64,000 nt of DNA from assembly GCF_938045405.1 (NCBI RefSeq), contig NZ_CALIMW010000057.1, positions 2,312 through 66,311 on the forward strand. Reading direction: 5' to 3'. The number at the start of each line of letters is the position of its first letter. Position 1 is the first letter of the stretch. A program made the translations under genes and the position numbers. Positions 1 to 64,000 of the stretch are shown here, piece after piece. The DNA is from an uncultured Campylobacter sp. (lineage in GTDB: Bacteria > Campylobacterota > Campylobacteria > Campylobacterales > Campylobacteraceae). The notes below the pieces were generated by a model. The model was not told the DNA's origin. It worked only from the letters and a program-made list of their open reading frames with translations, and did no database searches.

Positions 1-165
1 GATCTCAAAAAATTCAAGCACCTGGTCGAGCATCTGCCTGTGCTGCGCCGTAACGCAAACCTTCACTTCAAATTCCGCATGCTTTTGAAATTCCTTTATC
101 AACAGAGCCATCTTAATGGCCTCCGGGCGCGTTCCAAATACTATCAAAATTTTTCTTTTCGTCAT
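1..165 (-). CDS. UDP-N-acetylglucosamine 2-epimerase (WecB/NeuC family), N-terminal fragment running off the window edge
   Basis: Reverse-complement translation gives [55 protein letters not shown]. The [18 protein letters not shown] motif is diagnostic of non-hydrolysing UDP-GlcNAc 2-epimerases. ATG at 163-165 (minus strand). Confidence 0.6.
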
Positions 166-315
166 AAACTCCCCTATATATCGATTTTTTAACCAAATTT
201 ATCGCCGTGATTTTAATTAAATTTTGCTATATCGGCGCTTAACAATACATAAAATCACCTATTTATCGCTACTTAGATGGTATAGAATGTTCTTTGCTTC
301 AAAGACGGCTAAGAT

Positions 316-1014
316 TTATTTTAAATTATCAAAAAATTCCATCGCAAAATCATCGAAAATTTTACCTTTCAAATGCGCTTTACAAAATTCCACGATGAGT
401 CCATGAAATAACACATACGTGCTGTTTTCGTTCTCCAGCTTATCTGCTTTTGCCGCCGCATCGCAGGGAAAATTAGCGAAATTTACAAACTCATAGATCC
501 GCTCAAATTCCAGTTCGCCGAGCCACGCGCTAAGCTCGTCGTAACTTTCAAACTCATAGCCCAAAGCCCCGAGCAGCCGCGCCGAGTAGCTGTCCGCGAC
601 CATCACCGCGCGCTCGCACGCATAGCACAAGATCGCATCGCAGCTCTCCGCGCCGATCCCCTTGCGCGCTAGCAGCCACTCGCGGCTAACGCCCGATTTA
701 AAGCTCTCAAAATCCCCAAAATCCGCGATTATCGCTTTGCAAAGCAAGCTTAGGCGTCTAGCTTTTTGATTATAAAATCCACTTACTTTGATGATCTCCG
801 CAAGCTCCGCTTCATCTAGCCCGGCGATCCCATCTAGACTCAAAAGCCCCTTGCTACACAGGTTTTGCAGTGCCGCATCAGCATTGCGCCACGCCGTATT
901 TTGGATCAAAATCGCCCCCACGACCACCTCAAAGCTTCCAAATCCGGGCCACCAGCGAAAATCCTTGATTTTCACGGCGCGAAAAAGCGCGATAAAAAGC
1001 TCGGTCGCGCTCAT
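316..1014 (-). CDS. HhH-GPD superfamily DNA glycosylase-like protein (endonuclease III-related, no C-terminal 4Fe-4S cysteine cluster)
   Basis: Track ORF of 232 aa. ILIQNTAWRNA and LDGIAGLDEAELAEIIKVSGFYNQKARRL match the HhH-GPD fold. No CX6CX2CX5C cluster. Its ATG overlaps the stop of the upstream ORF (ATGA). Confidence 0.55.
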   Translation of the reverse strand: MSATELFIALFRAVKIKDFRWWPGFGSFEVVVGAILIQNTAWRNADAALQNLCSKGLLSLDGIAGLDEAELAEIIKVSGFYNQKARRLSLLCKAIIADFGDFESFKSGVSREWLLARKGIGAESCDAILCYACERAVMVADSYSARLLGALGYEFESYDELSAWLGELEFERIYEFVNFANFPCDAAAKADKLENENSTYVLFHGLIVEFCKAHLKGKIFDDFAMEFFDNLK

Positions 1015-6208: not shown

Positions 6209-7874
6209 GCCATAAAATGAAATTTTCTACCAAATGAAACGAGCCAAAAACCAAATACTCCTCGTCCGCTCTAAGCTCGCCGCGAAACGGCGAATGCGGA
6301 ATTTTAAGCGCGTCAAGCGCACGGGTTATCGCCTCTGCCGCCATTTCGCGATCCGCAACCTCGTAGTTAAAGATCTCCACGCGCTCTACCACGGGCGCTA
6401 AAGTCCGCAGCACAGCAGCTACGTCCTTATCGGCAAAGGCGTTGTAAATCAGCACGATCTTTCTGCCCCTGTAGATTTCGGTAATTTCACGGGCGACTTG
6501 CTGCGCCGCAAGCTCGTTGTGTCCGACATCCACGCATAAATTTGGCGCCAAAACTTCCATCCTGCCGCGTAAATTTAGAGGCGGCAGCTGTGAAATTTCA
6601 AATTTCAAATTTAAAAATTTCATCGCGGCAAGCGCTAGGGCTAAATTTGAAATTTGAAATTTAGGTAGATTATTGCACGCGCAAAACTCCGCGATCTGCG
6701 CTTGCTCGCTCTTGCTTAAAAGCTCTGCTGCAAACCTCAAATGAGTTCCTTTTTGCTCTGCGATCTGCTGCGCGATACGAAGCGGAACCTCGCTCATCTC
6801 ATCGCTTAAAATCGCCTCCTTATCCATCGTAATGAGCTTGGTGTGGGCGATCTGCTCTAGATTTTGTCCTAGCATGCCTAAATGATCGGTGCCGATCGGT
6901 GTAAAAAGCGACAGCGTGCGTCCAAAGCTCGACGTAGCGTCAAACTCGCCGCCCATCCCAGCCTCGATCACGCAGTAATCGCAATCCCTAAAAAGCACTG
7001 CCGCCGCAAGAGTGAGATACTCGAAATACGACAGGCTATCTTTAAACTCCGCGGGCAAGCTCTCTTGCAAAAACTCATGCGCGAAATCAAGCTCCTCATC
7101 CGTAGCATCGCGCCCTAGCGAAATGGGAAGCGAGCTTTGAGTGGATTTAAAATTTGATCTTAGCTGAGATTTAAAATTTTGCTCTGGCGAGAATTTTAAA
7201 TTTTGCTCAGACGGCGATTTGAGATCTTGAGAATTCCATAAATTTTGTGTAGAAGTAGAATTTTGCGCGATGAAATTATGCTTGCTACAAAAATTTTGCA
7301 TGGTATAAACGGAGTTCTGCAGGGCAGAATTCTGCTCACCATGCGAATCCTGCATGGTGATAAAATCCTGCGTGGTGGAATTTTGCAAATTAGAAATAGA
7401 AATTTGAGAGGCGGAATTTTCTCTGTTCGCAAAATTTTGCATCTTTATGGAATTTTGTTTTTCCGTAAAATTTGGCGCCAAAGCGGAATTTTGCTCGTTT
7501 TTAAAATTTGAAGCGTCGGAATTCAACGCAAAAACGGGGTTTTGCGCGATCCGTCCGCCTAGATAGATGCGCTCGTTGAGCCTAAAAACGTGCGGGCTGG
7601 TGTAGTGCCCTACGCTAAAGCCCGCTGCGGCGATCGCGTTAGCCAAAAACCGCCCGGTGCTACCCTTGCCGTTGGTGCCGATGATCTGAATGACATTTCT
7701 GAGCGGAATTTTATCTTTAATGGCGGCATATGCCCGCGGGAAGCGCTCGTAGTCGATTTTTTTGTAATAAATCGGGCGATTTTGCAAAAATTCTTTAATG
7801 CTGCGCCCGCTCAAGTCTGAATCCCCTAATCGCAAGCGCCGAAATAAACTCGTCAAACGCCTGCGCGGAGGCAT
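6189..7874 (-). CDS. folC: bifunctional folylpolyglutamate synthase / dihydrofolate synthase FolC carrying a ~145-aa in-frame low-complexity (QNS/QNF-repeat) insertion
   Basis: Mur-ligase motifs IQIIGTNGKGSTGRFLANAIAAAGFSVGHYTSPHVFRLNERI. 561 aa, versus about 380-430 aa for typical FolC. The insertion spans about aa 105-250 (nt ~7127-7562). The true start may be the TTG near 7811, because the track ATG at 7874 overlaps the upstream lipoprotein gene by 80 nt. Confidence 0.8.
   Translation of the reverse strand: MPPRRRLTSLFRRLRLGDSDLSGRSIKEFLQNRPIYYKKIDYERFPRAYAAIKDKIPLRNVIQIIGTNGKGSTGRFLANAIAAAGFSVGHYTSPHVFRLNERIYLGGRIAQNPVFALNSDASNFKNEQNSALAPNFTEKQNSIKMQNFANRENSASQISISNLQNSTTQDFITMQDSHGEQNSALQNSVYTMQNFCSKHNFIAQNSTSTQNLWNSQDLKSPSEQNLKFSPEQNFKSQLRSNFKSTQSSLPISLGRDATDEELDFAHEFLQESLPAEFKDSLSYFEYLTLAAAVLFRDCDYCVIEAGMGGEFDATSSFGRTLSLFTPIGTDHLGMLGQNLEQIAHTKLITMDKEAILSDEMSEVPLRIAQQIAEQKGTHLRFAAELLSKSEQAQIAEFCACNNLPKFQISNLALALAAMKFLNLKFEISQLPPLNLRGRMEVLAPNLCVDVGHNELAAQQVAREITEIYRGRKIVLIYNAFADKDVAAVLRTLAPVVERVEIFNYEVADREMAAEAITRALDALKIPHSPFRGELRADEEYLVFGSFHLVENFILWLEARRG
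7127..7562 (-). repeat. in-frame tandem repeats of ~gaatt(t/c)tgc units (encoding QNS/QNF) inside folC
   Basis: More than 20 imperfect repeats of g/aaatt(t/c)tgc, visible on the + strand at irregular 12-30 bp spacing. Stop-free in the folC frame. Confidence 0.8.
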
Positions 7875-22612: not shown

Positions 22613-22649
22613 TGAAATTTCACGCGCTGCGCTTTCTGAGAGCAGGATG

Positions 22650-23000
22650 AAATTTTATTTCGGCGCGAGATTTGCTCCGCGGATATAAGTTTGGTGAGCG
22701 GCACAGATCTTGCGATAAACAGAGCGCGGAGGCGGTAAATTTAAAATTTTAAAGCCCACAGCGCTAAATTTAAAGCAAAACGTGCGGCGTTTGCATGCAA
22801 AATTCGCTCGCATGCCAAATATTTACTACGGGCAGGTAAATTTTACGGAGCGTCTTGCGGCGCCACGAGCTAGGGATGTATACGGCTTAGGCGCGGAATT
22901 TTAACGCGGCTCGGCGTAAAATTTTAAAGCACGGACTTGACACCACTTGCTCAGCATAGTGCGACTGGCGGTAAAATTTACCGACAGAATCGCATTTAAG
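22650..23000. repeat. intergenic cluster of GC-block + RAAATTY repeat units
   Basis: Units include ggcggtaaatttaaaattttaaagcc, gctaaatttaaagc, gcatgcaaaattcgctcgcatgcc, gggcaggtaaattttacggagcg, ggcgcggaattttaacgcggc, cgtaaaattttaaagcacgg and ggcggtaaaatttaccgac. Confidence 0.7.
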
Positions 23001-23279
23001 CCGCGCGAAAATAGCGATTTTGTCGCACTAACGCAAGTCGTGTTTCAAACCGCATCCGCGCAATTAGGATTGCGTTTAAGTTATGAGTATGTGTATCGCT
23101 CAAGCCACGCTTAACGGCGCAGTGGCGTCCTGAAATTTCGCTCTATGTCCGCAGGACGCGCAATAATATTTGCGTAATGCTGCGAACGCGGCAATTACAG
23201 CGTGCCGATGCCTGCGCTCTATGTGCATTAAAGGTGCGGCTGAATCGTAAATTTAAAGATAAAATTTAAAAGGTCTGAA

Positions 23280-23999
23280 ATGAAAAAAATCGTATTTTTG
23301 ATCCTGCTTTTCGCAGCCGTTGCGCTCGCGCTTTATGTTACTTCGCGCGTAAATCCAAATCTTTTCGCCGAAATCAAAATCCTAGGCGCACTACTAAACG
23401 CCACGATTTTCGGCGTCGCGCTCATCGCCTTAGCGATCGGCGAAAAGGAGCTCGTGCGCTTTCCGTTTCTTACCGCCTCGCTACTGGCGCTGTTTTCGGG
23501 ACTGGTAGAGGGCGTGCTGCTCTTCGAAAACCGCTACTACATCGCGATCACGGCGGCAGCGTTCGTCGCCTTCGTCTTTTATCTGCAGATAAGGCACAAA
23601 AGATTTTCAAACAAAGCTTATAAAAATTCTGCGAACGAAGGCTCTAGAAATTTAGATGAGAGCGCAAATTTAAAAGACGCGGATTTCGGCGGCGCAAAAG
23701 AGGCGCAGGAGCTGCAAAATAAAAGCGCCGCGGCGGATGAAATTTTAAACTTTAAAAGCGGTGGCGAAATTTCAAATTCTCAAAGCGAGGATGAAATTTT
23801 AAATTCTAGTGGCGATCTCGGTGAAAATTTCGCGAGCGGCGCCGATGAAAATTCTACGCATCGCGCTGATGAAAATTCCGACGAAAATTTTAAAATTTTA
23901 AACGGCGGCGCGGGCGAAGGTAGCGCGGACGAAAATTCCGTGCAAAATTTCAATCAGGATGGTGAAAATTCCGCGCCCGGCGCAAGGCGCGATAGATGA
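23280..23999 (+). CDS. membrane protein with C-terminal acidic ENS/ENF/EIL low-complexity repeats, hypothetical
   Basis: 239 aa. About 4 TM helices, then about 120 aa of D/E/N/S repeats encoded by gatgaaaatt-type units. ATGA-coupled to the next ORF. Confidence 0.5.
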   Translation: MKKIVFLILLFAAVALALYVTSRVNPNLFAEIKILGALLNATIFGVALIALAIGEKELVRFPFLTASLLALFSGLVEGVLLFENRYYIAITAAAFVAFVFYLQIRHKRFSNKAYKNSANEGSRNLDESANLKDADFGGAKEAQELQNKSAAADEILNFKSGGEISNSQSEDEILNSSGDLGENFASGADENSTHRADENSDENFKILNGGAGEGSADENSVQNFNQDGENSAPGARRDR

Positions 24000-25584: not shown

Positions 25585-26937
25585 TTGGATAATCTAATAG
25601 CACAATGCAGCGAAAGGCTCGACGTTTTTTTAAGCTCGCAGCTTGGAATTTCGCGCAACCAAATATCAAGCCTGATCAAATCCGCAGCGGTCAGAGTGGA
25701 CGGCGCGGTGCAAACTAAGCCCGGCTACAAACTATCTGCAGGCGAGCTCGTGCACATCGACTACCCCGCGCCTGCGCCGCAGCAAACGAGCGCGGAGCGG
25801 CTGAATTTCGACGTTAAAATTTTATACGAGGACGATGATCTGCTCGTGGTAAATAAGCCCGCGGGCCTTACCGTCCACCCCGCCGCAAGCGTCAAAGAAC
25901 CCACGCTCGTGGACTGGCTCAAGTCTCGCGGCTATCTGCTTTCCACGCTCGGCGGCGAGCTTCGCGCAGGCATCGTGCACCGCCTTGATAAGCTTACCAG
26001 CGGCGCCCTGCTCGTCGCTAAAAACAACGCCGCGCATGCCGCGCTATCGGCACAGCTAAGCGATAAGAGCATGGGGCGGATATACCTCGCGCTCATCGAT
26101 CTGCCGCTGAAAGAACCCTGCGTGATCGAGCGCCCGATCGCTCGCAACCCAGCAAACCGCCTAAAAATGGGGATCGTACCCGGCGGGCGCAACGCAAAGA
26201 GCGCGTTTTATGAAATTCTAAGCGGCACAGAACTAACGGAGCTTCAAAACTCCGCCCAGAAGTGCGATGAAATTTTAAGTACGGGCGCGAGTACGGCTGC
26301 GGGCAAGAGCGCGGGCATGGATGAAATTTTAAACGACTATGCAGGCGCGGACAACGCGGACGAAATCTCAAATAGCTGCATGCAGAGCGCGGATAAAATT
26401 TCAATCCAAAGCGCAGATAAAATTCCAAGCAGCCGCGCGGGCAACGCAGGTAAAATTCCAAACAATCTCGTAGATAGCGCAGATAAAATTTTAACCGCCA
26501 AAATGAGCGCGGATCAAACCCGCACCGCCCGTCTCGCCGAGAATAAATTTTTAAATTTTAAAAATCCCGCTCAAAACTATAAGTTGCCGCCGATAAACCT
26601 AAAGAGCTTTAATCTCGTCGCGGCAAAGCTCTTCACGGGTCGCACGCATCAGATCCGCGTGCATTTAAGCTCGATAAATCGGCACATTTTGGGCGATCAT
26701 TTATACGGATTTAAGAGCGAAAACGCTAAAATTAGCAGGATTTTGCTCCATGCCTATTTGCTCTATTTCATCCATCCGCGAAGCGGCAAAGAGGTGAAAA
26801 TATGCGCGGGCTTGCCGAGCGAATTTCTAAATTTTACGACAAATCAAAAGGTAAAGGATGAAATTTATGAAAAAATTTTACCGACTAACGTTGAGCGCTA
26901 CTTTAGCGATATTAGCGGGTGGCTGCGCTATGTCTAG
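25585..26937 (+). CDS. rluD: 23S rRNA pseudouridine synthase, RluA/RluD family, with a ~125-aa in-frame low-complexity insertion
   Basis: S4 domain N-terminus. Catalytic HRLDKLTSG motif. C-terminal QIRVH motif. 450 aa versus about 300-330 aa typical. The insertion spans about aa 215-340 (nt ~26227-26605), made of DEIL/ADKI repeats. Confidence 0.85.
   Translation: MDNLIAQCSERLDVFLSSQLGISRNQISSLIKSAAVRVDGAVQTKPGYKLSAGELVHIDYPAPAPQQTSAERLNFDVKILYEDDDLLVVNKPAGLTVHPAASVKEPTLVDWLKSRGYLLSTLGGELRAGIVHRLDKLTSGALLVAKNNAAHAALSAQLSDKSMGRIYLALIDLPLKEPCVIERPIARNPANRLKMGIVPGGRNAKSAFYEILSGTELTELQNSAQKCDEILSTGASTAAGKSAGMDEILNDYAGADNADEISNSCMQSADKISIQSADKIPSSRAGNAGKIPNNLVDSADKILTAKMSADQTRTARLAENKFLNFKNPAQNYKLPPINLKSFNLVAAKLFTGRTHQIRVHLSSINRHILGDHLYGFKSENAKISRILLHAYLLYFIHPRSGKEVKICAGLPSEFLNFTTNQKVKDEIYEKILPTNVERYFSDISGWLRYV
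26227..26605 (+). repeat. in-frame ~27-33-bp periodic GCGSRGATAAAATTY repeats inside rluD
   Basis: Units such as gcgatgaaattttaagt, gcgcggataaaatttcaatcc, gcgcagataaaattccaagc, gcaggtaaaattccaaac and gcgcagataaaattttaacc. Confidence 0.8.
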
Positions 26938-27535: not shown

Positions 27536-29632
27536 TTGCCGAATTTCATAACCCAAAGCGTGAGCCTGCCGCGGCTGCCGATTAAGCTCGGCGAGACCGA
27601 GTTTTTAGAGACGGCACGCGGTAGAAATTTAACGCTCGTGCGAACCAAAAGCTTTGATAGCGAGTTTTTTATCATCGTTAAGCCCAGCGGCGACAAAGTG
27701 ATAGTAAAGGGCGAAAAGATCACCAAGCCCGCCAAGATCGGCCATCTGCAACGAGCGCTCGAAATTTTTAAAGAGCGCTTCTGCGGGCAGATCATCTCGC
27801 AGGCGTTTGCCTACAAAGACAGCTCACTTACCGAAAAAACGCCGCTGATTTTGGACGAGAATGAAATTTTATCCCTCGTAAAAAGCTCTAAATTTAATAA
27901 AATTTTCATCGAGATCGGCTTCGGCTCAGGCAGACACCTGCTTCATCAAGCGCGCTCAAATCAAGACGCGCTGCTAATCGGCATCGAAATTTACAAGCCC
28001 GCGATCGAACAGGTCGCAAAGCTAGCGATCCGCGAGGGGCTGCAAAACATTGCGCTGATTGCCACCGACGCACGGGTTTTACTAAGCCTGCTTCCCGCAG
28101 GCTGCCTGCAGCGCGTATTTTTGCACTTCCCCGTGCCGTGGGACGACGCGCCGCACCGCCGCGTCATAAGCGACGAGTTCGCCTCGCAGATCGCACGCAC
28201 GCTCGGGCGCAGCGGCCGCTTCGAGCTTCGCACCGACAGCGAGGAGTACTTCCTCTACGCGATGCAAAAGCTCTCGCCCTACGTTCAGCACAAAGCGGGC
28301 GAAATTTCGCACTTCAAAAACCGAGACGCCGCCGTAGCGAGCAAATACGAGGATAGATGGCGCAAAATGGACAAAAACATCTACGATCTGATCTACGAGA
28401 ACAAAACCGCGGGCGTGGACGAACCGCAGCAGTTTGAGATGGAATTTTTAAAATTTGACGCGGCGGCAATCGCGCGAAATTTTAAAAATTCTACCTTCAA
28501 AGGCGAGGATTTTTTCGTGCATTTTGAGGAAATTTTTTACTTTGACGCGCAGAAAGACTTGGACGCGGATGGGGCTTGCGCGGAGCGCGGCGTAAATTTA
28601 AGCGGCGCGGGCGAAGTCATGAACGACGAGGCTACAAATTTGGACGCAATGCGCGGCAAAAATTTAACCGAGCGCGCAAGCGTGGATGAAATTTCGTCAG
28701 GCGGCGGCAAAATTTTAGCTACGACACCCGCGGATAAAATTTCAGCTTGCACGAACGCTACGCAAATTCTAAAAAAAGCAAGCGTTCTACCAAATACAAA
28801 CCGCGCGGATGAAACAGGCGTAAATTTAAACGAGGATCGCTTGAGCGCAAACGGCGTAAATTTAGCAAGCGATGTTCCTGTCGCGGTAAGCGCTAAATTT
28901 AGCCGCACTGCCCCTGGCGAAAAACGCGCTTTAGCCTGCGAGCAGATCGTAACAAAGCAAGGTACGCAGATAAACAGCGCAGCCGCCTCAAGCGATACAC
29001 CAAAAGCAAATAACCCGCTCGCAACAATCGACGCAAGCAACGCGCTAAATTCTATCGGCGCAGAGGGGGCGCCTGCAACTATCGACGCGACAGGGGCAGG
29101 CAATACACCCACAACGATCGATGCAATAGATGCGAGCAATGCGTTGAATGCGGACGGCTCGTTCGCAGCAGCCCGCACAAACGAAGCAAACGCGGCGCTA
29201 AACATAAGCGCAGTACCTTGCAAAAATGAATCGCAAGCTGAATTACAAAATAAGTCAAACTCTATCAAATCGCAAGTCGGTCGCCGAAGCGAGCCAGGCC
29301 ATGACGAGCTACAAGCCGAACACCAAGGCAAATTAAATCGTGCCGAGCAGCAATGGCAAGGCAAACCAAGCTGCGTTAAGTCGCAAGACGAATGGCAAAG
29401 CGAACCAAGCTGTACCGAGCAGCAAAACGAACGGCAAAGCAAGCCATGCGCCGCCGAGCCGCAGGACGTGCTAATCCTGCTTTCGCTCGGGGCATTCGAC
29501 TTTCCGCAGCAGTGTTTCATCCGCGCAAACGCAAGCGGCACGCGCTACTTCATCCGCCGCCCGCTTCCTACGCGCGAAAACCACGCGGCACATCAAAAAA
29601 TTTCGGAGATATTTTCACAATGGCAGAGATAA
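27536..29632 (+). CDS. trmB: tRNA (guanine46-N7)-methyltransferase TrmB with an N-terminal extension and a ~360-aa low-complexity C-terminal extension
   Basis: TTG start. SAM-MTase core IEIGFGSGRHLL ... LHFPVPWDD, about aa 110-340. Residues about 340-698 are repeat-derived low complexity (VNL/KNL/DEI units). The stop overlaps ftsE by 13 nt. Confidence 0.7.
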   Translation: MPNFITQSVSLPRLPIKLGETEFLETARGRNLTLVRTKSFDSEFFIIVKPSGDKVIVKGEKITKPAKIGHLQRALEIFKERFCGQIISQAFAYKDSSLTEKTPLILDENEILSLVKSSKFNKIFIEIGFGSGRHLLHQARSNQDALLIGIEIYKPAIEQVAKLAIREGLQNIALIATDARVLLSLLPAGCLQRVFLHFPVPWDDAPHRRVISDEFASQIARTLGRSGRFELRTDSEEYFLYAMQKLSPYVQHKAGEISHFKNRDAAVASKYEDRWRKMDKNIYDLIYENKTAGVDEPQQFEMEFLKFDAAAIARNFKNSTFKGEDFFVHFEEIFYFDAQKDLDADGACAERGVNLSGAGEVMNDEATNLDAMRGKNLTERASVDEISSGGGKILATTPADKISACTNATQILKKASVLPNTNRADETGVNLNEDRLSANGVNLASDVPVAVSAKFSRTAPGEKRALACEQIVTKQGTQINSAAASSDTPKANNPLATIDASNALNSIGAEGAPATIDATGAGNTPTTIDAIDASNALNADGSFAAARTNEANAALNISAVPCKNESQAELQNKSNSIKSQVGRRSEPGHDELQAEHQGKLNRAEQQWQGKPSCVKSQDEWQSEPSCTEQQNERQSKPCAAEPQDVLILLSLGAFDFPQQCFIRANASGTRYFIRRPLPTRENHAAHQKISEIFSQWQR
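28556..29470 (+). repeat. repeat-derived low-complexity tract forming the trmB C-terminal extension
   Basis: Recurring GC-rich block + (g/c)taaattta/gaaattt units. Both the sense frame and an antisense frame (28537..29541) are stop-free. Confidence 0.75.
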
Positions 29633-32493: not shown

Positions 32494-32886
32494 GTGGGCA
32501 GGGGAAATTCTAAATTTAGCGGATCTTGCGAGGATGCCGAAAGTTTAAATTTAAGCGGACAGAATTCAGGCTGCGATTTAAATTTAGATGAGCAGAATTC
32601 TTTAAAAGAGCAGAATTTCGCCACTTCAAATTTGAACGATGAAAGCTCTGCGGCGGCGTTAAATTTAAACAGTCAAAGCTCTGCCGCCATAGATATTGCC
32701 TCTACGTCAAATTTAGATAGCGAGAATTCCGCCACGGGAGCCACTGCATTAAATTTTAAAAATAAGAATTCCGCGACGACGGACATCATAGCGACATCAA
32801 AAACGATGGCGGGCGCCGCAAAAACAGGAAGCTACAACGAGCGTCGTAGAAGTAAAAACGACGAAAACAGCGCAAAACGATATTGA
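32494..32886 (+). CDS. low-complexity ORF (QNS/ENS/LNL repeats); possibly a translated repeat array rather than a genuine gene
   Basis: 130-aa ORF made entirely of cagaattc/aaattt repeat units. No domain. Starts 4 nt after the envC stop. Confidence 0.25.
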   Translation: MGRGNSKFSGSCEDAESLNLSGQNSGCDLNLDEQNSLKEQNFATSNLNDESSAAALNLNSQSSAAIDIASTSNLDSENSATGATALNFKNKNSATTDIIATSKTMAGAAKTGSYNERRRSKNDENSAKRY

Positions 32887-34220: not shown

Positions 34221-34346
34221 CGCTAAATAAGAAATTTTAAGCAGGCGCGGCGGGTAAATTTAAATTTTATTATCTTCGCTAGCGAGGTAAAATTTTATAA
34301 ATTTACCGCTCTTGCCGCGAAGGTAAAATTTAGTTATATCTTTCAT

Positions 34347-37049: not shown

Positions 37050-37739
37050 ATGTCGCAAAGTATAGTCGAGTTTGCTACGATAATCCTTTATGTTACGATA
37101 GGCTTTTGCCTTCTTGTTTCATTGCTTCAGACAAACAGATCGTATAAAACCGTCTATCGCGGGACATTATTTATCCCAACCGATCCGCTTTTAAAAATAC
37201 CTATGTTTATAATATGCCTAAGCTTCGGTGTAGTCACTCTATCCAGCCCGCACGTAGCAAAACATAACGGCAATCCCATACCCTGCTTTTACACCCATGA
37301 TAAAGTTTGCTCGCAAGAGTATAAAGCGGCGGGCATAAATTTAAGATGCTTCGAAGAAGGCGATCCCAGATGTGTGGATGGATATCTGCAAATAAGCGAG
37401 CCTAGACTAATACTCGGCAAAATCATATCTGTCTGCGCCATAATTTTTTCCTTTATCGTGCTAATTCAAAAAGGAATCAGAATAGATAAAAGCGGCATCT
37501 GCAAAGAATGGGAGGTTCTGCCGTTTAGGCATACGGAAAAGATATACTTTGATGAGATGAACTACGCCACATGGTTTATAAGAGGCGTAAAAATAATCAG
37601 CATACGAGGCAAAATTAGCGGCGTTAAATTCGGAGCGGGATTTTTATATGCACGAAGAGATATAGATTTTTTGCAAAATTTTATATTAGAAAAGCTAGCT
37701 GAAATTTCAAAAGCCGAAGCAGCCGAGCGAAACACTTGA
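37050..37739 (+). CDS. membrane protein, hypothetical (tandem paralogue A; possible C-terminal bacterial PH-like domain)
   Basis: 229 aa. Three hydrophobic helices, a Cys-containing periplasmic segment (CFYTHDKVC...CFEEGDPRC), and a C-terminal EWEVLPFRHTEKIYFDE segment. Paralogous to the next ORF. Confidence 0.5.
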   Translation: MSQSIVEFATIILYVTIGFCLLVSLLQTNRSYKTVYRGTLFIPTDPLLKIPMFIICLSFGVVTLSSPHVAKHNGNPIPCFYTHDKVCSQEYKAAGINLRCFEEGDPRCVDGYLQISEPRLILGKIISVCAIIFSFIVLIQKGIRIDKSGICKEWEVLPFRHTEKIYFDEMNYATWFIRGVKIISIRGKISGVKFGAGFLYARRDIDFLQNFILEKLAEISKAEAAERNT

Positions 37740-37781
37740 GCTTAATTTAACGCTAAAAATATCTAAATTTAAGGCGGCGGC

Positions 37782-38408
37782 ATGATATTTTTATATTTGA
37801 TATTCGGCATAAATCTTTTACTGTTTGGGCTTGCTATTTTAAAAAGCATGGTTTTTAAAAGCAAAGCCTCTTATAAAACCGTGCAAAAGGGCGCCTGGCT
37901 CATACCTCCTAGCCCCATAGCAAAAACTATGCTTATCGTGCTATTTTTATCCTGGGGTTCGTTGGTGGCGTTTGATGAGCCTTGGATAAAAACAACAAGA
38001 GGCGGAGGTAAAGTTGCATGCTTTGATGCAAACGACCCTTTATGCGTAGGCGGGTATATGCAAAGAGGCGGCGGCGAGACCGCACTCGTGATCGTAATGG
38101 GTCTTGCAATGATGTTAATTGCCATACTGCCGTTATCCGAAAAGGGCGTCATCATAGATAGCCGCACCGCAAGGAAAGAGTGGAGATTTTTATCGTTTAA
38201 ATTTAGCACAAAGATCGATATAGAAAACGCCCTTACGGAGAAAGGGATGAGGGGCGAGATGCCGATTTTGATAGTAGAAGACGGGCAAAGCGGAAAAAAT
38301 TTCACGCTCTCATTCCCATACGCACAGCAAGATATAAAATTTATTGAAGCAGAGATAAGAAAGAGGCGCTATAAGATGATAAAATCAAAAGAGGCAAGAG
38401 TCCCTTAA
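37782..38408 (+). CDS. membrane protein, hypothetical (tandem paralogue B)
   Basis: 208 aa. Same architecture as 37050..37739: SYKTVQKG vs SYKTVYRG, CFDANDPLC vs CFYTHDKVC, EWRFLSFKFSTKIDIE vs EWEVLPFRHTEKIYFDE. Confidence 0.5.
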   Translation: MIFLYLIFGINLLLFGLAILKSMVFKSKASYKTVQKGAWLIPPSPIAKTMLIVLFLSWGSLVAFDEPWIKTTRGGGKVACFDANDPLCVGGYMQRGGGETALVIVMGLAMMLIAILPLSEKGVIIDSRTARKEWRFLSFKFSTKIDIENALTEKGMRGEMPILIVEDGQSGKNFTLSFPYAQQDIKFIEAEIRKRRYKMIKSKEARVP

Positions 38409-38633: not shown

Positions 38634-38635
38634 CC

Positions 38636-38679
38636 AAGCCCAACGCAAGCCCAACGCAAGCCCAACGCAAGCCCAAAAA
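38636..38679. repeat. 11-bp tandem repeat caagcccaacg, about 3.6 copies
   Basis: The sequence ccaagcccaacgcaagcccaacgcaagcccaacgcaagcccaaaaaag is directly visible. Confidence 0.9.
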
Positions 38680-39706: not shown

Positions 39707-39714
39707 TTTCGCGG

Positions 39715-39920
39715 CGGCGCAAATTCCATGCCACGTGGAATTTTGCGTCATAAAATTCCGTACCACATAAAATTTACACGCGAAATTCCGTGCCGTATAA
39801 AATTCTACGCCTTTAAAATTCCACAGCGAAATTCTGCGCCATGCAGAATTCTATGTCACGCCGAACTTTGCGGTGCCGTGCGCAAGGATACGTTAAAATT
39901 TCGTATTAAATTTACCCAGC
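39715..39920. repeat. ~16-bp-periodic tandem array of (R)AAATTCYRYRCC units, about 10 copies, between eamA and the vWA gene
   Basis: The aatt cores fall at about 39722, 39739, 39754, 39771, 39785, 39800, 39817, 39830 and 39847, giving spacings of 13-17 bp. The array spans the spurious ORF 39728..39943. Confidence 0.8.
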
Positions 39921-40008
39921 AGAGGCGTGCGGCGAAGCTTTAGCAATAAAATTTCATTGCTTAAGCGATACAATAGTAAAATAATGAAATTTTAACAAAG
40001 GAGCCCCT

Positions 40009-46437: not shown

Positions 46438-46818
46438 TCGCGTGATTGCAAATTTCGCGATAAAAGATTTAAATCGCTGCAACGCAGAGTTTTTTTGGCG
46501 AGTGCGGAATTTGCAAGCCACTTGAGTCGTTGATCGTCCACGCCTGCAACCCAAACACGACCCTGCGTGATATTGAAATTTTAAAATCCGAAATTTGCTT
46601 TAAATTTAAACTCTCCTGTGCGCGAAAATTTTAATATTCGCTCGGCTCTTAAAATTTTAAAATAGCTTTTAAAAATTTCTATAGATAAATCATTCAAGCA
46701 AATTTTACGCCGTAAAATTTTAGCTATAAAATTATAACGACTTTCAAGATGCTTTAATACAATTTTCATTAAAATCACGCCGTCTTAATTAAAATAATTT
46801 TCAAAAAAAAGGAAAATT

Positions 46819-53846: not shown

Positions 53847-53949
53847 AGATATCCTTTAATTTCGATCGCTGCCGTTCATGCGGCGGATTATTTATGCTCC
53901 GCACCAAAAGCTAGCGGCGGCAAAATTTTAAAATTTTGCGCCTTAGCGA

Positions 53950-54450
53950 CAAATTTAATCACGATAAAATTTGCGCGTGAAGCAAAAACAAATCTGCGCA
54001 AAGATAGAATTCACAACCACCGCGAACATAAAATTAAAAGCAGCTGCCGTATCGAAAAAGGTACCGCTATAAATTTAGAGCAGCTCACACACGGGCACGG
54101 ATAAAATTCCGAAGCCGAAATCTACAAATACCACAAACAAGGCGACTTGCGTTAAATTTACGCGCACTTTAAAAATGACAAACCGCTTTAAAGAAATTTC
54201 AATCGCGCTCGCGCTATGAAATTTTAAAAGCAAGTTACCACACCGAGCTACCGATAAATTTAAGCAAGGCGATCGCACTACTGGATCAAAGATCGCGCCG
54301 ATACCGAGCAAAACGCGCTATGAAATTTTAAAGACAAGTCGCCGCGCCTACGCTGCCACCAAATTTAAAATGAACCGATCGCACCGCAAAATTTTAAAAG
54401 CGAGCCGTTGCGCCCAAACTAGCTAAATTTAAAATAAAGTAATCGCTCCG
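53950..54450. repeat. degenerate ~50-bp tandem repeats (gaaattttaaaagcRag...cc...aaatttaa) between the hypothetical gene start and the pyrC 3' end
   Basis: Recurring gcgctatgaaattttaaaagcaagttaccacaccgagctaccgataaatttaagcaaggcgatcgcac-like units with several partial copies. Confidence 0.65.
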
Positions 54451-54526
54451 TTTATGCTACGAATGCCGCCCGTCAGCAAGCTGCGCCCGCCAAGTCGCCG
54501 CTCGCAAGCTCTACGCCGAAAGCGTG

Positions 54527-56733: not shown

Positions 56734-57012
56734 TCCCTCTCCTTTTTTGGGCCGAATTTCAGCCGTAATTGTATAAAAAAATCTCTGATAAAATTTTAAA
56801 ATTTAAGAGCGGGGCTCAAATTTAGACGCGAAATTTTGCTTGGAATTTCATTTAAGATCACATACGAAGCGTGAGCGGAATTTTGGGGTAAAATTTAAAA
56901 ATTTTAGGATTAAATTTGAGCTTTTTGAGCGAAAATTTTAAAAAATCCGCCACGCCACTTACGTAAAATTTTAAAGCTTTACGCGCGGCGGGCGGCTAGA
57001 AAAACAAAGAAT

Positions 57013-57543
57013 TTAAAGCTTATTTAAATACTTTATATAATTTTTCGCGCTATTTTCTACGGCTTGCTCGCTTTTATCGTAAGTAAAGCCGTATGAGACG
57101 AAATTTGGTAGCGCAATCGCGCCGACGAAATTAAACGTAGCCTTAAATGGCGCTAGCACCTCATCTACGCTAAAGCCCACAATGCCGTTTTTAGAGTAGT
57201 TTGCCTCGGTCGCGCCAAGTGAGATCGCAAGCGCGAATTTTTTGCCCTTAAGTTTGCCGCCATCCTCTCCGCCATAAGCCCAGCCGCGCGTAAAAACATC
57301 CTCAAACCACTGCTTAAGAAGCGGCGTGCAGTTTGAAAAACGAAACGGAAACTGAAGCACGATTTTATCGTGGCTTTCGAGCAGTTTTTGCTCCTTTTCC
57401 ACATCGATTTTAAAATCCGCATAAAGCGCGTAAAGATCATGAAGCTCGAACTTATCAGGATGGGCTAGCACAGCATCCCTCCAGTGGCGGTTTACGAGCG
57501 AGTTTGCGATATTTGGATGAGCCAAAATAATGAGAGTTTTCAT
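57013..57543 (-). CDS. flavodoxin-like fold NAD(P)H-dependent oxidoreductase (NAD(P)H dehydrogenase (quinone) / general stress protein 14 family)
   Basis: 176 aa. MKTLIILAHPNIANSLVNR N-terminus characteristic of the Flavodoxin_2 family. Confidence 0.75.
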   Translation of the reverse strand: MKTLIILAHPNIANSLVNRHWRDAVLAHPDKFELHDLYALYADFKIDVEKEQKLLESHDKIVLQFPFRFSNCTPLLKQWFEDVFTRGWAYGGEDGGKLKGKKFALAISLGATEANYSKNGIVGFSVDEVLAPFKATFNFVGAIALPNFVSYGFTYDKSEQAVENSAKNYIKYLNKL

Positions 57544-58103
57544 TTCTATCCTTTAAATTTGAAATTGCGGGGCGCATTATAGCCCTACTTCGTAAAATTT
57601 TTCTCGTTTTATCGCAAGCAGCCTTAAATTCTAAAGCTTTACCAGCCGCCACCCGCTTATCTTTGACAGCGGCTTCAAAGAGCGCGAGCTTTGAATTTCA
57701 AACTTCATCCATTACTCGCGCTTTATTTTAGAAATGCTCGCCCTTGGGGCACTCGTCGCGTTTTACGGAGGTTTATCACTTCTTTGCAAATATTCATATT
57801 CCATTGCGGAAGCTCGCGCGAGTAAAATTTTAACGAAGCCGCCGCGCAGGGGAAATTTTAATAAAATTTAGCATCGTTTCTCTGCGAGCATTCGCCACAA
57901 CAAATAAAATTTAGATGAAATCTAGCCGTGCTTTAAACTATATAATCTTGCCATCGGTTCCGTCGTCGGGCTGCGGGTGCTCATCGCGCTCTTATGAGTG
58001 TCCGTCACGCTTTCGTGCAGGCTCGTTACGCTCCTGCGAAGACTTGCCGCTTTCCTGCGGATGGTAGTTGCAACAAAAAATTTTGAGTAGAATTTAGCGT
58101 AAT

Positions 58104-58955
58104 TTAAATTCTAAAGCTTTGCCTACCAGCCGCCTCTTCAGGATCTGAATTATCATCGCGCTCCTGCGAGCGCCCGCCGCGCAGCTCCTGTCTGGGCTGC
58201 ACGCCAAAGCCCTCCAAGACCTTGCCTAGGCTTTCATTAGCGTCCTTGATGATACCTTGCAGGCTTTCGCCCATCTGATCAAGGTTTTTGCCCGCCTCGC
58301 GCGCCGCCGCCTCGCCCTGCTTTAGCAGATCCTTGGTCCTATCGGCGTTGCGAGCGGCGAAATCGTTCAGCGCTTCGGGCGCCTTTTTCTGCAAATTTTG
58401 CAAGGCCTCGCCCAAAACTTTAGCATCGTTTGCAAGCTCGTCTATCGTGGAATTTAGATCGGATTTTTGCTTGCTCTCAAAGCCCTGCGGCACGGAATTT
58501 TGCGTGGAGCCTTGCATAGAATTTTGTGTGGAGCTTTGAACGGAATTTCGCCCCGAGCTATCCGTGCTTTTATTAAAATTTCGCCCTTGATTACTCGCGC
58601 TAAAATTCTGTTCCGATCGTGCGCTTTGTTCGCGATTTTGCGCGTCTGATCCGCCGTCGCAGCCGCTTAAAATACATATCGCGGCTAACGCCAAAGTAAA
58701 ATTTCGCGCCGCGTTTATAAAACTAAAATTTCTAGCGCGACCCGCTGAGATAAAATTTAATCCGCCCTGCGCCGAGATAAAATTTCGCCCGCTGCCGATC
58801 TTTATAAAATTCTGCCTAACGTATGCCGAAGTAAAATTTCGCCCGCCATCCGCCGAATCGAAATTTCGCGACCGTCCAGAGCCCGGCTCGCCGCTAGCTC
58901 TGATAAAATTCTGCGCCAAATCCCGTCCGCACCCTTTCAAAATTCGTCTTTTCAA
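58104..58955 (-). CDS. putative lipoprotein with coiled-coil C-terminal region; the N-terminal ~90 codons are a 27-bp-periodic repeat array and may be untranslated
   Basis: The track ORF starts at TTG 58955, 12 nt after the cinA stop. Residues 1-90 are RNF/QNF 9-aa repeats. A lipobox-like ALAAICILSGC|D sits at about aa 89-99 (Cys at nt ~58661). The C-terminal 150 aa is helical and charged. Confidence 0.45.
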   Translation of the reverse strand: MKRRILKGCGRDLAQNFIRASGEPGSGRSRNFDSADGGRNFTSAYVRQNFIKIGSGRNFISAQGGLNFISAGRARNFSFINAARNFTLALAAICILSGCDGGSDAQNREQSARSEQNFSASNQGRNFNKSTDSSGRNSVQSSTQNSMQGSTQNSVPQGFESKQKSDLNSTIDELANDAKVLGEALQNLQKKAPEALNDFAARNADRTKDLLKQGEAAAREAGKNLDQMGESLQGIIKDANESLGKVLEGFGVQPRQELRGGRSQERDDNSDPEEAAGRQSFRI

Positions 58956-58960: not shown

Positions 58961-58966
58961 GCTCCT

Positions 58967-60215: not shown

Positions 60216-62975
60216 ATGGACTACAAAGATACTCTCTTTCTTCCTACGACGGACTTTGCGATGCGAGGCGCGCTACCGCAAAACGAACCTGCGCGGTTTA
60301 AGGCATGGTATGACGAGCGTAAAATTTACGAAAAGATGAAAGCTAGGCGCAAGGGCGCAAGCGTCAGCTTCAATATCCACGACGGCCCGCCGTATGCCAA
60401 CGGACACCTCCACATCGGCCACGCGCTGAATAAAATTTTAAAAGACATCATCACCAAAACCCATTATTTTTTCGGCGAGGATATCCGCTACGTGCCGGGC
60501 TGGGACTGCCACGGCCTGCCGATCGAGCAGCAAGTAGAGATCAAGCTAGGCGAGCGGAAAAAATCGCTTTCAAAAGTGCAGATCCGCGAGCTTTGCAGAC
60601 AGCACGCCAAAGAGTTCATCGACGTGCAGCGCAATGAATTTAAAGATATGGGGATTTTGGGCGACTGGGACGATCCGTATCTGACGCTAAAATTTGAGTT
60701 TGAGGCTGAAATTTACAAAGCGCTCTGCCAGATCGCGAAAAAAGGAATTTTAATCGAGCGAAGTAAGCCCGTGTTTTGGAGCTGGGCGGCAAAAAGCGCG
60801 CTCGCAGAAGCCGAGGTCGAGTACAAAGACAAAGAGGACTACTCGATCTTCGTGGCGTTCGATCTAAGCGATGAAGCGAACGCTAAAATCGGCGCGAAAG
60901 GCGCCAAAGCGGTCATCTGGACGACCACGCCTTGGACGCTGCCTGCAAACGGCGCGATATCTTTGAACCCGAATGAAATTTACGCGCTGACGAGCGAAAA
61001 TTTAATCTTTGCAAAACCTTTGGTCGAAAGCCTCGTAAGACTGGGCATCACGAAGGGCGAGATAGTAAAAGAATTTAAAGCCGCCGAGCTTGAGGGCTTA
61101 AACGCGATCAATCCACTAAACGATAGAGCTTCGAAATTTATCCTCGGCGAGCACGTCCTGATGGACGGCGGCACCGGGCTCGTGCATACGGCTCCGGGGC
61201 ACGGCGAGGACGATTATTTCGTAGGGCTTAAATACGGCATCGAGGTGATTATGCCCGTGGATGAGGGCGGCTGTTTCGACGAGACGCTTAAAACCAAAAA
61301 ACTCTTCCGCGCAGACGTCGTAGATGAGCTCGTGGGGATGCATATTTTCAAAGCAAACGAGAAAATTTTAGAGCTTCTAGGCCCCGCACTTATCAAATCC
61401 GGCAAATTCGTCCACTCCTATCCGCACTGCTGGCGCACGCACAAGCCGGTGATCTACCGCGCGACGAAGCAGTGGTTTATCGCGATGGATGAGCCCAAAC
61501 TCAGCGGCAAGACGCTGCGCCAAGTAGCACTTGAAGAGATCGAAAAGGTTAAATTTTATCCGCAAAGCGGCATCAACCGCCTAAGCTCAATGATAGAAAA
61601 CCGCCCCGATTGGTGCATCTCGCGCCAGAGAGATTGGGGCGTGCCGATCGCGTTTTTCCGCGACAAAAGCACCAAAGAGCCGATCTTTGATGAGAAAATT
61701 TTAAATAATATCTACGAAATTTTTAAAGCCAAAGGCGCGGATGCTTGGTGGCAGATGGAAATTTCGGAGCTCTTGCCGCAAGATAGCGGCTATAAGCCTG
61801 AAAATTTAGAAAAGGTGATGGATATCTTAGACGTTTGGTTCGATAGCGGCTCTACGTGGAAAGCGGTGCTACAAAGCGGCGCCTACGATGCGGGCAAATT
61901 CCCTGCGGATATGTATCTTGAGGGCAGCGACCAACACCGCGGCTGGTTTCAAAGCTCTCTGCTTCTAAGCTGCGCAATCAACGAATGCGCGCCGTACAAA
62001 AGCATACTCACGCACGGATTTACCGTCGATGAGAAGGGCCAGAAGATGAGCAAGTCCGTCGGAAACGTCGTCTATCCGCAAGAGGTCGCAAAGAGCCACG
62101 GCGTGGAAATTTTACGCCTTTGGGTCGCGATGAGCGATTATTCGACCGATCTAAAGATCAGCGACAATATCCTAAAGCAGGTAAGCGAGCAGTACCGCAA
62201 GATCCGAAATACTATAAGATTTCTACTCGCAAGCACCAGCGATTTAAATGAGATCGAGACGAGTAATTTTACGCGGCTTGATCGCTGGATCCTAACGCGC
62301 GCGGCAAACGCCTTTGCGGGCGCGGAAGCGGCGTTTAGAAACTACGATTTTTCAAAGGGCTTCAACGCCTTACTAAATTTCTTAAGCGCCGATTTGAGCG
62401 GCATCTATCTTGATATCTGCAAAGACAGGCTCTACTGCGACGCACCCGACGAGCCGCGCCGCAGAAGCGCGCAAAGTGCGATCGCTCTGATTACGCGAGC
62501 GCTGCTACCTCTGATCGCGCCTACGCTAACCTACACGATTGACGAAGTAATGGAATTTGCGCCGCAAATCATTAAAGAGGGCAAGCAGGACGCTTTCGAT
62601 CTAATCTACAAGCAGGTAGAATTTGACGATTTTCTAGAATTCGACGAAATTTTAATCAAATCGAGGGAGAAATTTTTCGAACTCATTGACGCGCTGAAAA
62701 AGGACAAGATTATCAAGTCGACGCTTGAGCTGGTTTTGCAGACGAGCTCGAACGAAATTTTATCAAACGACATCCTAGGCGTGGCGGATTGGTTCATGGT
62801 AAGCGACGTGGACACTCTGCAAAGCGAGGAGGCTCTAGCGGAGTTTAAGATAAACGATGAAATTTTCCGCCTCGTAAAATCCTCTAAACACAAATGCCCT
62901 AGATGCTGGAAATTTAACGCAAAAGAGCCGTATGAGCTCTGCCCGCGCTGCGCGAAGGTCATGCATGCTCGCTAG
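60216..62975 (+). CDS. ileS: isoleucine--tRNA ligase
   Basis: The start was re-set to the ATG at 60216 ([18 protein letters not shown] aligns with the E. coli IleS N-terminus MSDYKSTLNLPETGFPMRG), with AAAGG 8 nt upstream. HIGH (HIGHALN) and KMSKS motifs. C-terminal Zn-finger CPRCWKF...CPRC. Confidence 0.95.
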
Positions 62976-63075
62976 CCCCATAAGTCTCAGCTTCGTATTT
63001 TTTACGATCGCGCTGATCTGCGTAGCGACGGGCGTGGGGATCTATTTCGTGAATAAATTTAAGGATGGCAGATGA
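62965..63075 (+). CDS. 36-codon hydrophobic micro-ORF (single predicted TM helix), translationally coupled between ileS and gatA
   Basis: ATG at 62965 lies inside the last ileS codons. The ORF encodes [36 protein letters not shown] and stops at TGA 63073-63075, overlapping the gatA ATG (ATGA). Below the track's 60-aa cutoff. Confidence 0.35.
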
Positions 63076-64000
63076 TAAGTTTGAAAGAGGCTCTAAAGCT
63101 GAGCGCGGATGAAATTTCGGCGCTTAGAGCGGAGCTAAAGGATAAAATTTTAAAAACCAAAGAGCTCGGCGCCTACGTAGAGCAGCTCACGGGCGAGGCT
63201 CTAAATATCAGCGGCCAGGGCGTGCCGATCGCGATCAAAGATAATATCCAAGTAAAAGATTGGAGCGTCACCTCGGCGAGTAAAATTTTGCAAGGCTACG
63301 TTGCGCCATACGATGCGACGGTGATCAAAAAGCTACGCGAGCGCGGCCTGGCGCCGTTTGGGCGAACGAATATGGATGAGTTTGCGATGGGAAGCACGAC
63401 CGAGAGCTCATTCTACGGCAAAACTCTCAATCCGACCGATCACTCGCGTGTACCCGGCGGCAGTAGCGGCGGAAGCGCGGCTGCCGTAGCGGCAAATATC
63501 GCCGTAGCCGCACTCGGAAGCGATACGGGCGGCTCGATCCGCCAGCCGGCGGCATTTTGCGGCTGCGTAGGCTTTAAGCCGAGCTACGGCAGGGTAAGCC
63601 GCTACGGGCTTGCGGCGTATTCTAGCAGCCTCGATCAGATAGGACCGATTACGCGCAGCGTCGAGGACGCGGCGATCTTATACGACATCATCGCAGGGCG
63701 CGACGAGATGGATAGCACGAGCTACGCGGGCGCCTACGAAAGCACCGCGGATAAGCTAAACGCGGATCGCAAGCTTAAGATCGCCGTTATAAAAAACTAC
63801 GTGGACGAGGCCTCGCAGCAGGTCAAAGAGGCTCTAAATTCGGCTATAGAAAAGCTAAAATCATTCGGGCATGAGATCGTTTACCGCGATCTTTGCAGCT
63901 CCAAATACGACATCGCGACCTACTACATCATCGCAACCGCCGAGGCTAGCGCAAATTTAAGCCGCTACGACGGCGTGCGCTACGGAAACCGCGCAAAGGC
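63072..64000 (+). CDS. gatA: glutamyl-tRNA(Gln) amidotransferase subunit A, 5' portion running off the window edge
   Basis: [15 protein letters not shown]... with the amidase-signature [13 protein letters not shown] and [12 protein letters not shown]. No stop within the window. Confidence 0.9.

Follow-up and report, generated by a model that had tools for sequence, protein, structure and literature searches.

Over-representation and positional conservation of the hexamer RAATTY in an uncultured oral Campylobacter, a plausible methylation-dependent tag for DNA uptake

The window analyzed here is the whole stretch of 64,000 nucleotides taken from contig NZ_CALIMW010000057.1 of an uncultured human-oral Campylobacter (assembly GCF_938045405.1, forward-strand positions 2,312 to 66,311), with a GC content of 49%. 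Its gene content was that of an ordinary housekeeping region, comprising mfd, folC, leuS, secDF, yajC, lnt, pyrH, rpoZ, spoT, tyrS, amiA, rodA, rluD, trmB, ftsEX, pyrB, a pyrC-like gene and ileS, and no tRNA genes were found in the 64 kb. The element under study is the hexamer RAATTY, above all its form AAATTT. This free-standing 6-bp palindrome saturates the spacers and, in all frames, the genes of the window lineage.

Protein comparisons placed the host within Campylobacter. The LeuS protein was 96–99% identical to that of eight metagenome-assembled genome (MAG) species labeled "uncultured Campylobacter sp." and only 73–74% identical to that of C. showae, C. concisus and Campylobacter sp. 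MOP7. For TyrS, the identity was 86% to Campylobacter sp. JMF_01 NE2 and VBCF_05 NA6, and 68–70% to C. rectus, C. mucosalis and C. geochelonis. In human oral metagenomes, window proteins recurred as exact copies on several contigs' translations; for one protein, an exact look-up gave no record.

Dispersed over the whole window (1..64000), 619 RAATTY sites were counted (423 AAATTT, 171 AAATTC/GAATTT and 25 GAATTC), which corresponds to 9.7 sites/kb, compared to approximately 66 sites (about 1/kb) expected from base composition. Gaps between neighboring sites averaged 103 bp, the longest measured 793 bp, and every 1-kb segment held at least one site. AAATTT ranked first among all 4096 hexamers of the window. 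The density of RAATTY was 20.5/kb in intergenic DNA and 8.1/kb in coding sequence, which held 458 of the 619 sites. Coding sites were spread over the three frames (143, 141 and 176), so that no single dipeptide accounts for them.

The initial annotation had described RAATTY as far more frequent than chance allows and had proposed a comparison of coding and intergenic counts with a Markov background; within the window, this comparison bore the description out. The observed-to-expected ratio (O/E) of AAATTT was 24.5 under base composition, 5.7 under a dinucleotide model and 4.8 under an order-2 Markov model. Under an order-4 Markov model, the ratio was 1.05, because the excess is already contained in the pentamers AAATT and AATTT. 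That an order-4 model reproduces the count speaks for the view that the excess is a by-product of composition, arising from a "blocky" AT/GC dinucleotide structure, codon usage or amino-acid content. The remaining evidence leaves this view a negligible probability. Besides the dinucleotide and order-2 excesses, other AT-only palindromes and hexamers were scarce, with 9 occurrences of AATATT, 5 of ATTAAT and 8 of TAATTA against 423 of AAATTT, and related genera of similar GC content showed no excess.

A synonymous control was also applied, in which codons were shuffled within each gene in 300 rounds, with proteins and codon usage preserved. AAATTT occurred 301 times in coding sequence, compared to 82.6 ± 6.9 times in the shuffles (3.6-fold, z = 31.7), and RAATTY 460 times compared to 183 (z = 29); relative to codon permutations, AAATTT was 6.7-fold more frequent. 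Of 99 Lys-Phe dipeptides, 97 were encoded by AAA-TTY; AAG-TTT occurred once, against 25.8 expected from the shuffles. Since the excess persists although proteins and codon usage are kept, it is a real and large property of the DNA itself, and an origin in composition or codon usage is refuted by the Markov models and shuffles together.

The enrichment ended exactly at the R...Y boundaries. Of ten NAATTN classes, the three that belong to RAATTY were alone in exceeding the synonymous shuffles: AAATTT 3.58-fold, AAATTC/GAATTT 1.65-fold (z = 7.2) and GAATTC 1.23-fold. The classes AAATTA/TAATTT and AAATTG/CAATTT reached 0.92- and 0.25-fold, respectively, and the Y...R and mixed classes ranged from 0 to 0.6-fold. 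As a result, 85% of AATT tetramers stood within an R...Y frame, compared to 25% expected. The same profile was found in C. showae-like and C. concisus-like loci, but not in Sulfurospirillum, Sulfurovum or Veillonella. The assignment of the aaattt, gaattt, aaattc and gaattc cores to RAATTY, made in the initial annotation, is supported by these boundaries and by the confinement of the signature to Campylobacter, and RAATTY is thus an over-represented chromosomal word. TTTAAA does not represent a signal of its own, and its excess derives from RAATTY: 110 of its 156 copies overlapped a RAATTY site, and conservation was limited to those overlapping copies.

Several other words were depleted. CAATTG was absent from the window, compared to approximately 16 sites expected, and words containing GGCC, GAAC/GTTC or GTAC were strongly under-represented relative to the synonymous shuffles (GCGGCC/GGCCGC, z = −7.3; TGAACA, 0 vs. 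19.8 expected). This pattern looks like restriction-site avoidance.

For the analysis of conservation, about 20 kb of the window was aligned to the relatives L012, L043 and L044 (95% identity) and L014 (89.6%), and a further 9 kb to L005 (94%). Relative to L014, 87.7% of AAATTT hexamers were intact, compared to 55.9% of all other hexamers and 51.2% of AT-only hexamers. Divergence at third-codon A/T positions was 5.4% inside AAATTT and 33.1% outside (p = 1.8e-20); for the 95% relatives, the corresponding values were 1.3–1.8% and 12–14%. The difference persisted when the same codon was compared inside and outside sites, with 3.9% vs. 22.3% for AAA, 5.7% vs. 40.9% for ATT, 7.0% vs. 31.2% for AAT and 4.7% vs. 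28.3% for GAA, so that change was 3–7 times slower within sites overall. In intergenic DNA, 2 of 173 positions differed from L005 inside cores and 130 of 970 outside (window-wide), and the pooled divergence was 3.0% and 13.9%, respectively (p = 9e-7). RAATTY is therefore protected from substitution 6–10-fold at otherwise neutral positions.

Intactness was graded, from 0.90 for AAATTT through 0.73 for AAATTC/GAATTT to 0.55 for GAATTC, a value close to background, with near-cognates at 0.32–0.50. Even at approximately 70% DNA identity, 37–47% of RAATTY sites lay at the same aligned position in C. showae/C. concisus; chance placement would give less than 1%, and a hexamer free of constraint about 12%. 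When terminal-branch changes of AAATTT were polarized with L014 (window 350–20790 vs. L012), 12 losses and 3 gains were recorded.

In every Campylobacter locus sampled, AAATTT was the top hexamer and RAATTY occurred at 8–10/kb, over a GC range of 35–51% (window lineage 47–51%, C. showae 47%, C. rectus 46%, JMF_01-like 42%, C. concisus and MOP7 38–40%, C. geochelonis 35%). Published methylome strand counts of RAATTY are 27,514 for C. jejuni IA3902 and 28,170–28,482 for C. coli; halved and divided here, they yield about 8.4 sites/kb in both species. The published 24,750 strand counts of C. fetus gave about 6.6/kb by the same calculation. The absolute density of RAATTY is thus nearly constant across 30–51% GC, and the fold-enrichment of RAATTY consequently climbs from about 2 to about 9, that of AAATTT reaching 24. 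What the initial annotation had called a genome-wide expansion is neither peculiar to this genome nor recent, but a genus-wide feature of near-constant density, with 37–47% of the sites shared with C. showae/C. concisus as given above.

No enrichment of RAATTY (O/E about 1) was found in the sampled loci of Sulfurospirillum, Sulfurovum, Veillonella and Clostridia. The extreme opposite to Campylobacter was a locus of Helicobacter sp. 11S02629-2 (L042), where only 3 RAATTY sites occurred in 22 kb (O/E 0.1) and nearly all hexamers with AATT were almost missing, a pattern that suggests AATT-directed restriction avoidance.

Mobile DNA carried fewer sites. On the conjugative plasmid pVir of C. jejuni 81-176 (L090), the O/E of RAATTY was 1.2 and 34% of AATT tetramers were in RAATTY. 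The plasmids of C. concisus 13826 (L091, L092) reached 2.1–2.2, compared to 4.0–4.6 on the chromosome, and a module with ParA and Rep3 genes in L005 reached 3.6, compared to 10.7 in its flanks. Like the DNA uptake sequences (DUS) of Neisseria and the uptake signal sequences (USS) of Pasteurellaceae, RAATTY is over-represented in its own genome and in relatives, in coding and non-coding DNA, and under-represented in mobile DNA.

The ParA and Rep3 genes belong to a plasmid-like module (GC 37%) that adjoins pyrB in L005 (1–3400) and L006 (1–2400). In the window, a kefF-like gene stands in its place (56734–58103), and homology stops at 56807. The difference may reflect a site of integration or variability, or else a chimeric contig.

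From the appearance of the intergenic DNA, the sites had been taken for a REP-like repeat family. According to this view, interspersed elements of the repetitive extragenic palindrome (REP), bacterial interspersed mosaic element (BIME) or miniature inverted-repeat transposable element (MITE) type, with units carrying a RAATTY core, spread through intergenic DNA and into genes. Local clustering was evident: 12 clusters of at least five cores with gaps of at most 30 bp were found, compared to 2.06 under random placement (maximum 6 in 200 trials). Degenerate tandem arrays with GC-rich spacers were spaced regularly, although with different periods: about 16 bp × 8 (39721–39851), 18 bp × 5 (7378–7524), 27 bp × 6 (58699–58866), 24 bp (23740–23898) and 15/18 bp (32547–32633). 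Relatives differed by gain or loss of 15–18-bp units in such arrays, as a repeat family would allow.

The arrays had only the core in common, their spacers being unrelated. A position matrix of the 423 AAATTT sites held no information beyond ±2 nt, in coding and intergenic DNA alike, and the flanking preference was a weak T-N-AAATTT-N-A. Consequently, neither a conserved unit of tens of base pairs nor a unit from which a consensus could be built was found. Tandem Repeats Finder (TRF) detected only a few weak arrays, and an Rfam scan of the window returned no matches. The copies were not essentially extragenic: most sites were solitary and stood in conserved codons of all three frames, and about 40% occupied orthologous positions in other species. 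The sole likeness to REP/BIME and MITE elements lies in how the intergenic DNA looks to the eye, with GC-rich blocks interrupted by a short conserved core, whereas a stem-loop consensus and restriction to intergenic DNA were both lacking. Such a family is thus refuted at the level tested and considered highly improbable. Of the periodicities reported with it, the local regular spacings were present where claimed, but pair-distance spectra showed no preferred intergenic spacing of 16–17, 27 or 50 bp, and coding DNA showed a period of 3 alone.

Campylobacter has a conserved orphan methyltransferase, CtsM/Cj0208, which forms N6-methyladenine (m6A) in RAATTY and labels DNA for uptake (PMC4687069, PMC10046745, PMC13436318). 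It is annotated as a D12 class or FokIM-like enzyme with the target RA(m6)ATTY, and it was kept in 331 of 331 C. fetus genomes examined. Only in C. jejuni, C. coli, C. lari and C. fetus has m6A been documented at the third base of RAATTY, and the dependence of uptake on methylated RAATTY has been demonstrated in C. jejuni only, which takes up only DNA with the methylated motif, the block lying at the first uptake step. The motif has also been described as frequent in the C. jejuni chromosome. What the initial annotation did not recall as described is therefore in essence known: in C. jejuni, RAATTY is established as an over-represented word, as the target of CtsM and as a motif with a role in uptake. 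The abstract of a 2017 study by Beauchamp and colleagues reportedly also speaks of "an overrepresented 6-bp sequence".

RAATTY/AAATTT in the window lineage is interpreted as probably a CtsM-methylated "self" tag for DNA uptake, maintained like an uptake sequence. A link to CtsM is plausible and was consistent with every test available. Under this interpretation, RAATTY sites would be targets of the genus-conserved orphan N6-adenine methyltransferase of the Cj0208 family (D12 class), and m6A-RAATTY would be the "self" tag required by the competence machinery, as in C. jejuni. Fragments richer in tags would be preferentially taken up and recombined, and the motif would thereby behave like a DNA uptake sequence. 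Uptake-biased molecular drive, selection, or both would then maintain the motif and convert one-step neighbors such as AAGTTT and CAATTT into RAATTY. Sites would accumulate where constraint is lowest, in intergenic DNA and disordered protein linkers, and slippage of short core-plus-spacer units may produce unstable local arrays in which spacers decay and cores are kept.

Several observations weigh against this interpretation. The degeneracy of RAATTY predicts neither the order AAATTT >> GAATTY >> GAATTC at 49% GC nor the weak T-N...N-A flank preference. The 12 losses against 3 gains on the terminal branch fit purifying selection and give no direct sign of ongoing drive. A single methylated site is said to suffice for uptake by C. 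jejuni (again Beauchamp and colleagues, 2017), and 8–10 sites/kb is far above such a need of one tag per fragment, so that dose-dependent drive or a second function would be required. The C. concisus plasmids were partly enriched, for which a host-wide mutational or repair bias is a possible cause. In addition, no ctsM or D12 methyltransferase gene was seen in the approximately 64 kb plus flanks of the lineage that were covered. The predominance of AAATTT over GAATTC, the high density and the as yet predicted status of the methylase together make a second function in architecture or epigenetics, or a repair bias, possible.

The methylase was sought in several ways. Open reading frames (ORFs) with a (D/N/S)PP(Y/F/W) motif were absent from the window and the sampled Campylobacter loci, which represent a few percent of a genome, and a phmmer search of E. 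coli Dam against the ORFs of all sampled loci, with the same coverage, yielded no Dam-like ORF. A tblastn search of Dam against plasmids and phages returned enterobacterial and phage Dams only, a look-up of related methylases in PDB returned Dam, DpnM and T4 Dam only, and no mislabelled Campylobacter chromosome was found in PLSDB. A methylase of phage DA10 was rejected as a ctsM-like candidate, as it is of the N6_N4 type and not D12. Among the window genes (mfd, folC, leuS, secDF, spoT, tyrS, amiA, rluD, trmB, ftsEX, pyrB, ileS and others), presumably none neighbors cj0208 in the C. jejuni NCTC 11168 gene order.

A code of architecture or protein binding was considered unlikely. It holds that AAATTT, whose A3T3 step has a narrow minor groove, is kept for an abundant nucleoid or regulatory protein or for bending, and that methylation, if present, acts on chromosome structure or expression independently of uptake. 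Strong conservation and constant genus-wide density agree with such a code, as do the preference for AAATTT over GAATTC, the weak palindromic flank, an intergenic density 2.5 times that of coding sequence and a total density far exceeding the need of uptake tagging. The pair-distance spectrum, however, contained no 10–11 bp peak, as helical phasing or curved DNA of phased A-tracts would produce, and no fixed spacing. The enriched set ended exactly at the R/Y boundary of the methylase, with AAATTA neutral and AAATTG depleted fourfold, no candidate protein is known, and the non-enrichment of the C. jejuni plasmid would be left unexplained.

Even less probable is a context-dependent mutation or repair bias, in which RAATTY is a mutational sink restored by methyl-directed or very-short-patch-like repair, as proposed for the cyanobacterial HIP1 palindrome, without selection for function. 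The depletion of one-step neighbors (AAG-TTT, 1 vs. 25.8 expected; AAATTG, 0.25-fold) argues for such a bias, the intermediate enrichment of the C. concisus plasmids is as expected from amelioration in the host, and the divergence data alone do not separate a low out-rate from selection. On the other hand, pVir resides in Campylobacter and was nevertheless near random (O/E 1.2, 34% of AATT in RAATTY), the recent branches lost more sites than they gained, which is the opposite of a sink, and Campylobacter is not known to possess such a repair activity.

The tracts named in the initial annotation were indeed RAATTY-dense (16–48/kb). In the intergenic DNA of the window, the tract at 34221..34346 held 6 AAATTT in 126 bp (47.6/kb), and that at 39707..40008 held 13 cores (43/kb), including the degenerate tandem array at 39721–39851 with nine cores 13–17 bp apart. 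Twelve cores (43/kb) were found at 56734..57012, in two clusters (56791–56848 and 56878–56938), and eight cores formed a cluster at 46576..46720. Spacing was irregular in the regions 22613..23279 (13 cores, 19.5/kb) and 53847..54526 (15 cores, 22/kb, 8–67 bp apart); the latter is overlapped by the relative L005.

The in-frame, stop-free tracts reported in folC, rluD, trmB and the ORFs 23280..23999, 32494..32886 and 58104..58955 proved to be real. The densest were low-complexity segments in which the motif was read as xxA-AAT-TYx (QNS, QNF, ENS, RNF, LNL) or as GAA-ATT-TTx (DEIL). In folC, an insert at 7115..7530 (minus strand, amino acids 116–253) was composed of in-frame QNS/QNF/ENS units with 38 RAATTY/kb; in its array at 7378–7524, AAATTT and AAATTC alternated with an 18-bp period. 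This insert of approximately 140 amino acids sits between two conserved parts of FolC and was missing from FolC of C. concisus and C. showae. Close MAGs carried it with 15- and 18-bp indels, and the version in L014 was shorter and different. A further cluster of 8 cores was located at 6571..6662 (minus strand) in the conserved C-terminal part of folC, where AAATTTC/AAATTTG 7-bp repeats encode KF/LKF.

In rluD, repeated DEIL/DKI units carrying cores formed a low-complexity insert at 26230..26590 (plus strand). The RluD protein (25585–26937) comprised 450 amino acids, compared to 337–354 in C. geochelonis and C. rectus. The trmB ORF (27536–29632) encoded 698 amino acids, the TrmB model ending near residue 337 and the orthologs of C. 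geochelonis and C. rectus measuring 391–392; its C-terminal extension (28550..29632, plus strand) contained a core cluster at 28636–28769 with a spacing of about 27 bp. The excess length of RluD and TrmB (100–300 amino acids) is due to the low-complexity segments. C. rectus MnmC measured 873 amino acids, compared to 620–653, which suggests similar inserts in other genes and species.

Sixteen cores (43/kb) were found in the disordered C-terminal tail (23620..23990, plus strand) of the hypothetical membrane protein 23280..23999, spaced partly by 24 bp and read as DEIL, ENS and ENF units. The small low-complexity ORF 32494..32886 (plus strand) had 33 RAATTY/kb, and its array at 32547–32633 alternated between 15- and 18-bp spacing. 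On the minus strand, seven cores at exactly 27-bp spacing (58699..58866) formed the degenerate tandem repeat AAATTTTAYCTCGGCG... in the 5' part of ORF 58104..58955. The start codon of this ORF is TTG, and only near residue 88 does a lipoprotein-type signal (LALAAICILSGC) appear; the first approximately 85 codons, including the 27-bp array, are probably a non-coding leader, stop-free by chance, upstream of the real lipoprotein start. The location of the densest tracts in lineage-specific, indel-prone low-complexity inserts fits the behavior of an uptake sequence.

A more far-reaching version is put forward as a tentative and doubtful proposal: the RAATTY load may be held at a genus-wide set-point of about 8–10/kb (30–51% GC) by a force exceeding an uptake need of one tag per fragment, either dose-dependent uptake drive that continuously rewrites synonymous sites or a second, chromosome-wide role of m6A-AAATTT. 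In the drive variant, unstable mini-arrays of core and spacer would be seeded and expand in-frame, adding 100–300 low-complexity residues encoded by the motif (QNS/QNF/ENS/DEIL) to essential enzymes such as FolC, RluD and TrmB. If this were true, a self-tag at the DNA level would visibly shape proteomes and intergenic architecture, an effect stronger and more general than that described for DUS/USS.

The closest known system is CtsM/RA(m6)ATTY of C. jejuni, with the same motif, genus and density (8–10/kb here; 8.4/kb in C. jejuni as well as C. coli) and with sites over nearly every gene in both. The two differ in enrichment, as O/E reached 9 for RAATTY and 24 for AAATTT here, compared to about 2 in C. 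jejuni at 30% GC (calculated from the published counts). In the window lineage, AAATTT dominates, AATT words other than RAATTY are depleted, and local arrays and in-frame inserts are present, while methylase, methylation and uptake dependence are only predicted.

With DUS and USS, RAATTY shares the features of a genus-specific over-represented short word that occurs in coding and non-coding DNA, is conserved among relatives, is rarer in mobile DNA and is concentrated where proteins tolerate it, and uptake-biased molecular drive can explain it. In contrast, DUS and USS are non-palindromic words of 9–12 nt, read as sequence by a receptor and present at about 1/kb, whereas RAATTY is a degenerate 6-bp palindrome with uninformative flanks, about ten times denser, that would be recognized only when methylated. 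HIP1 of cyanobacteria (GCGATCGC) is likewise a palindrome that is hyperabundant both within and between genes, to a degree that codon usage does not explain, and that is conserved at orthologous positions, as found here; it is associated with cognate methyltransferases and has recently been linked to transformation efficiency. The word, its length (8 bp) and the phylum differ, the words here being AAATTT/RAATTY in Campylobacterota, and HIP1 has not been reported to form arrays or in-frame inserts.

Four features appear to be new in the literature searched: the constancy of the density across GC content within the genus, the degree to which silent sites are conserved, the under-representation of near-cognate AATT words and the motif-laden in-frame inserts. 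If the tag interpretation is correct, the oral, GC-richer Campylobacter would provide the clearest natural case of a methylation-dependent tag evolving like a classical DNA uptake sequence. Base composition in these lineages has moved away from that of the motif, whose maintenance therefore stands out (24-fold excess, 6–10-fold slower silent substitution), whereas in AT-rich C. jejuni the background masks most of the same signal. The strength of uptake-driven drive or selection could thereby be quantified, and the lineage-specific inserts of low complexity in housekeeping proteins would gain an explanation that can be tested. For metagenomes, AAATTT in first rank and more than 75% of AATT tetramers in RAATTY would serve as a marker distinguishing chromosomal from mobile Campylobacter DNA.

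Two further observations concern the middle of the window. A low-GC patch (34347–38408, 30–42% GC) contained hypothetical ORFs without NCBIfam matches, and these ORFs had the lowest O/E of RAATTY in the window (2.4–2.8); the patch is probably recently acquired DNA. At 38635–38676, a perfect 11-bp tandem repeat (CAAGCCCAACG × 3.8) lies in intergenic DNA and is unrelated to the RAATTY cores.

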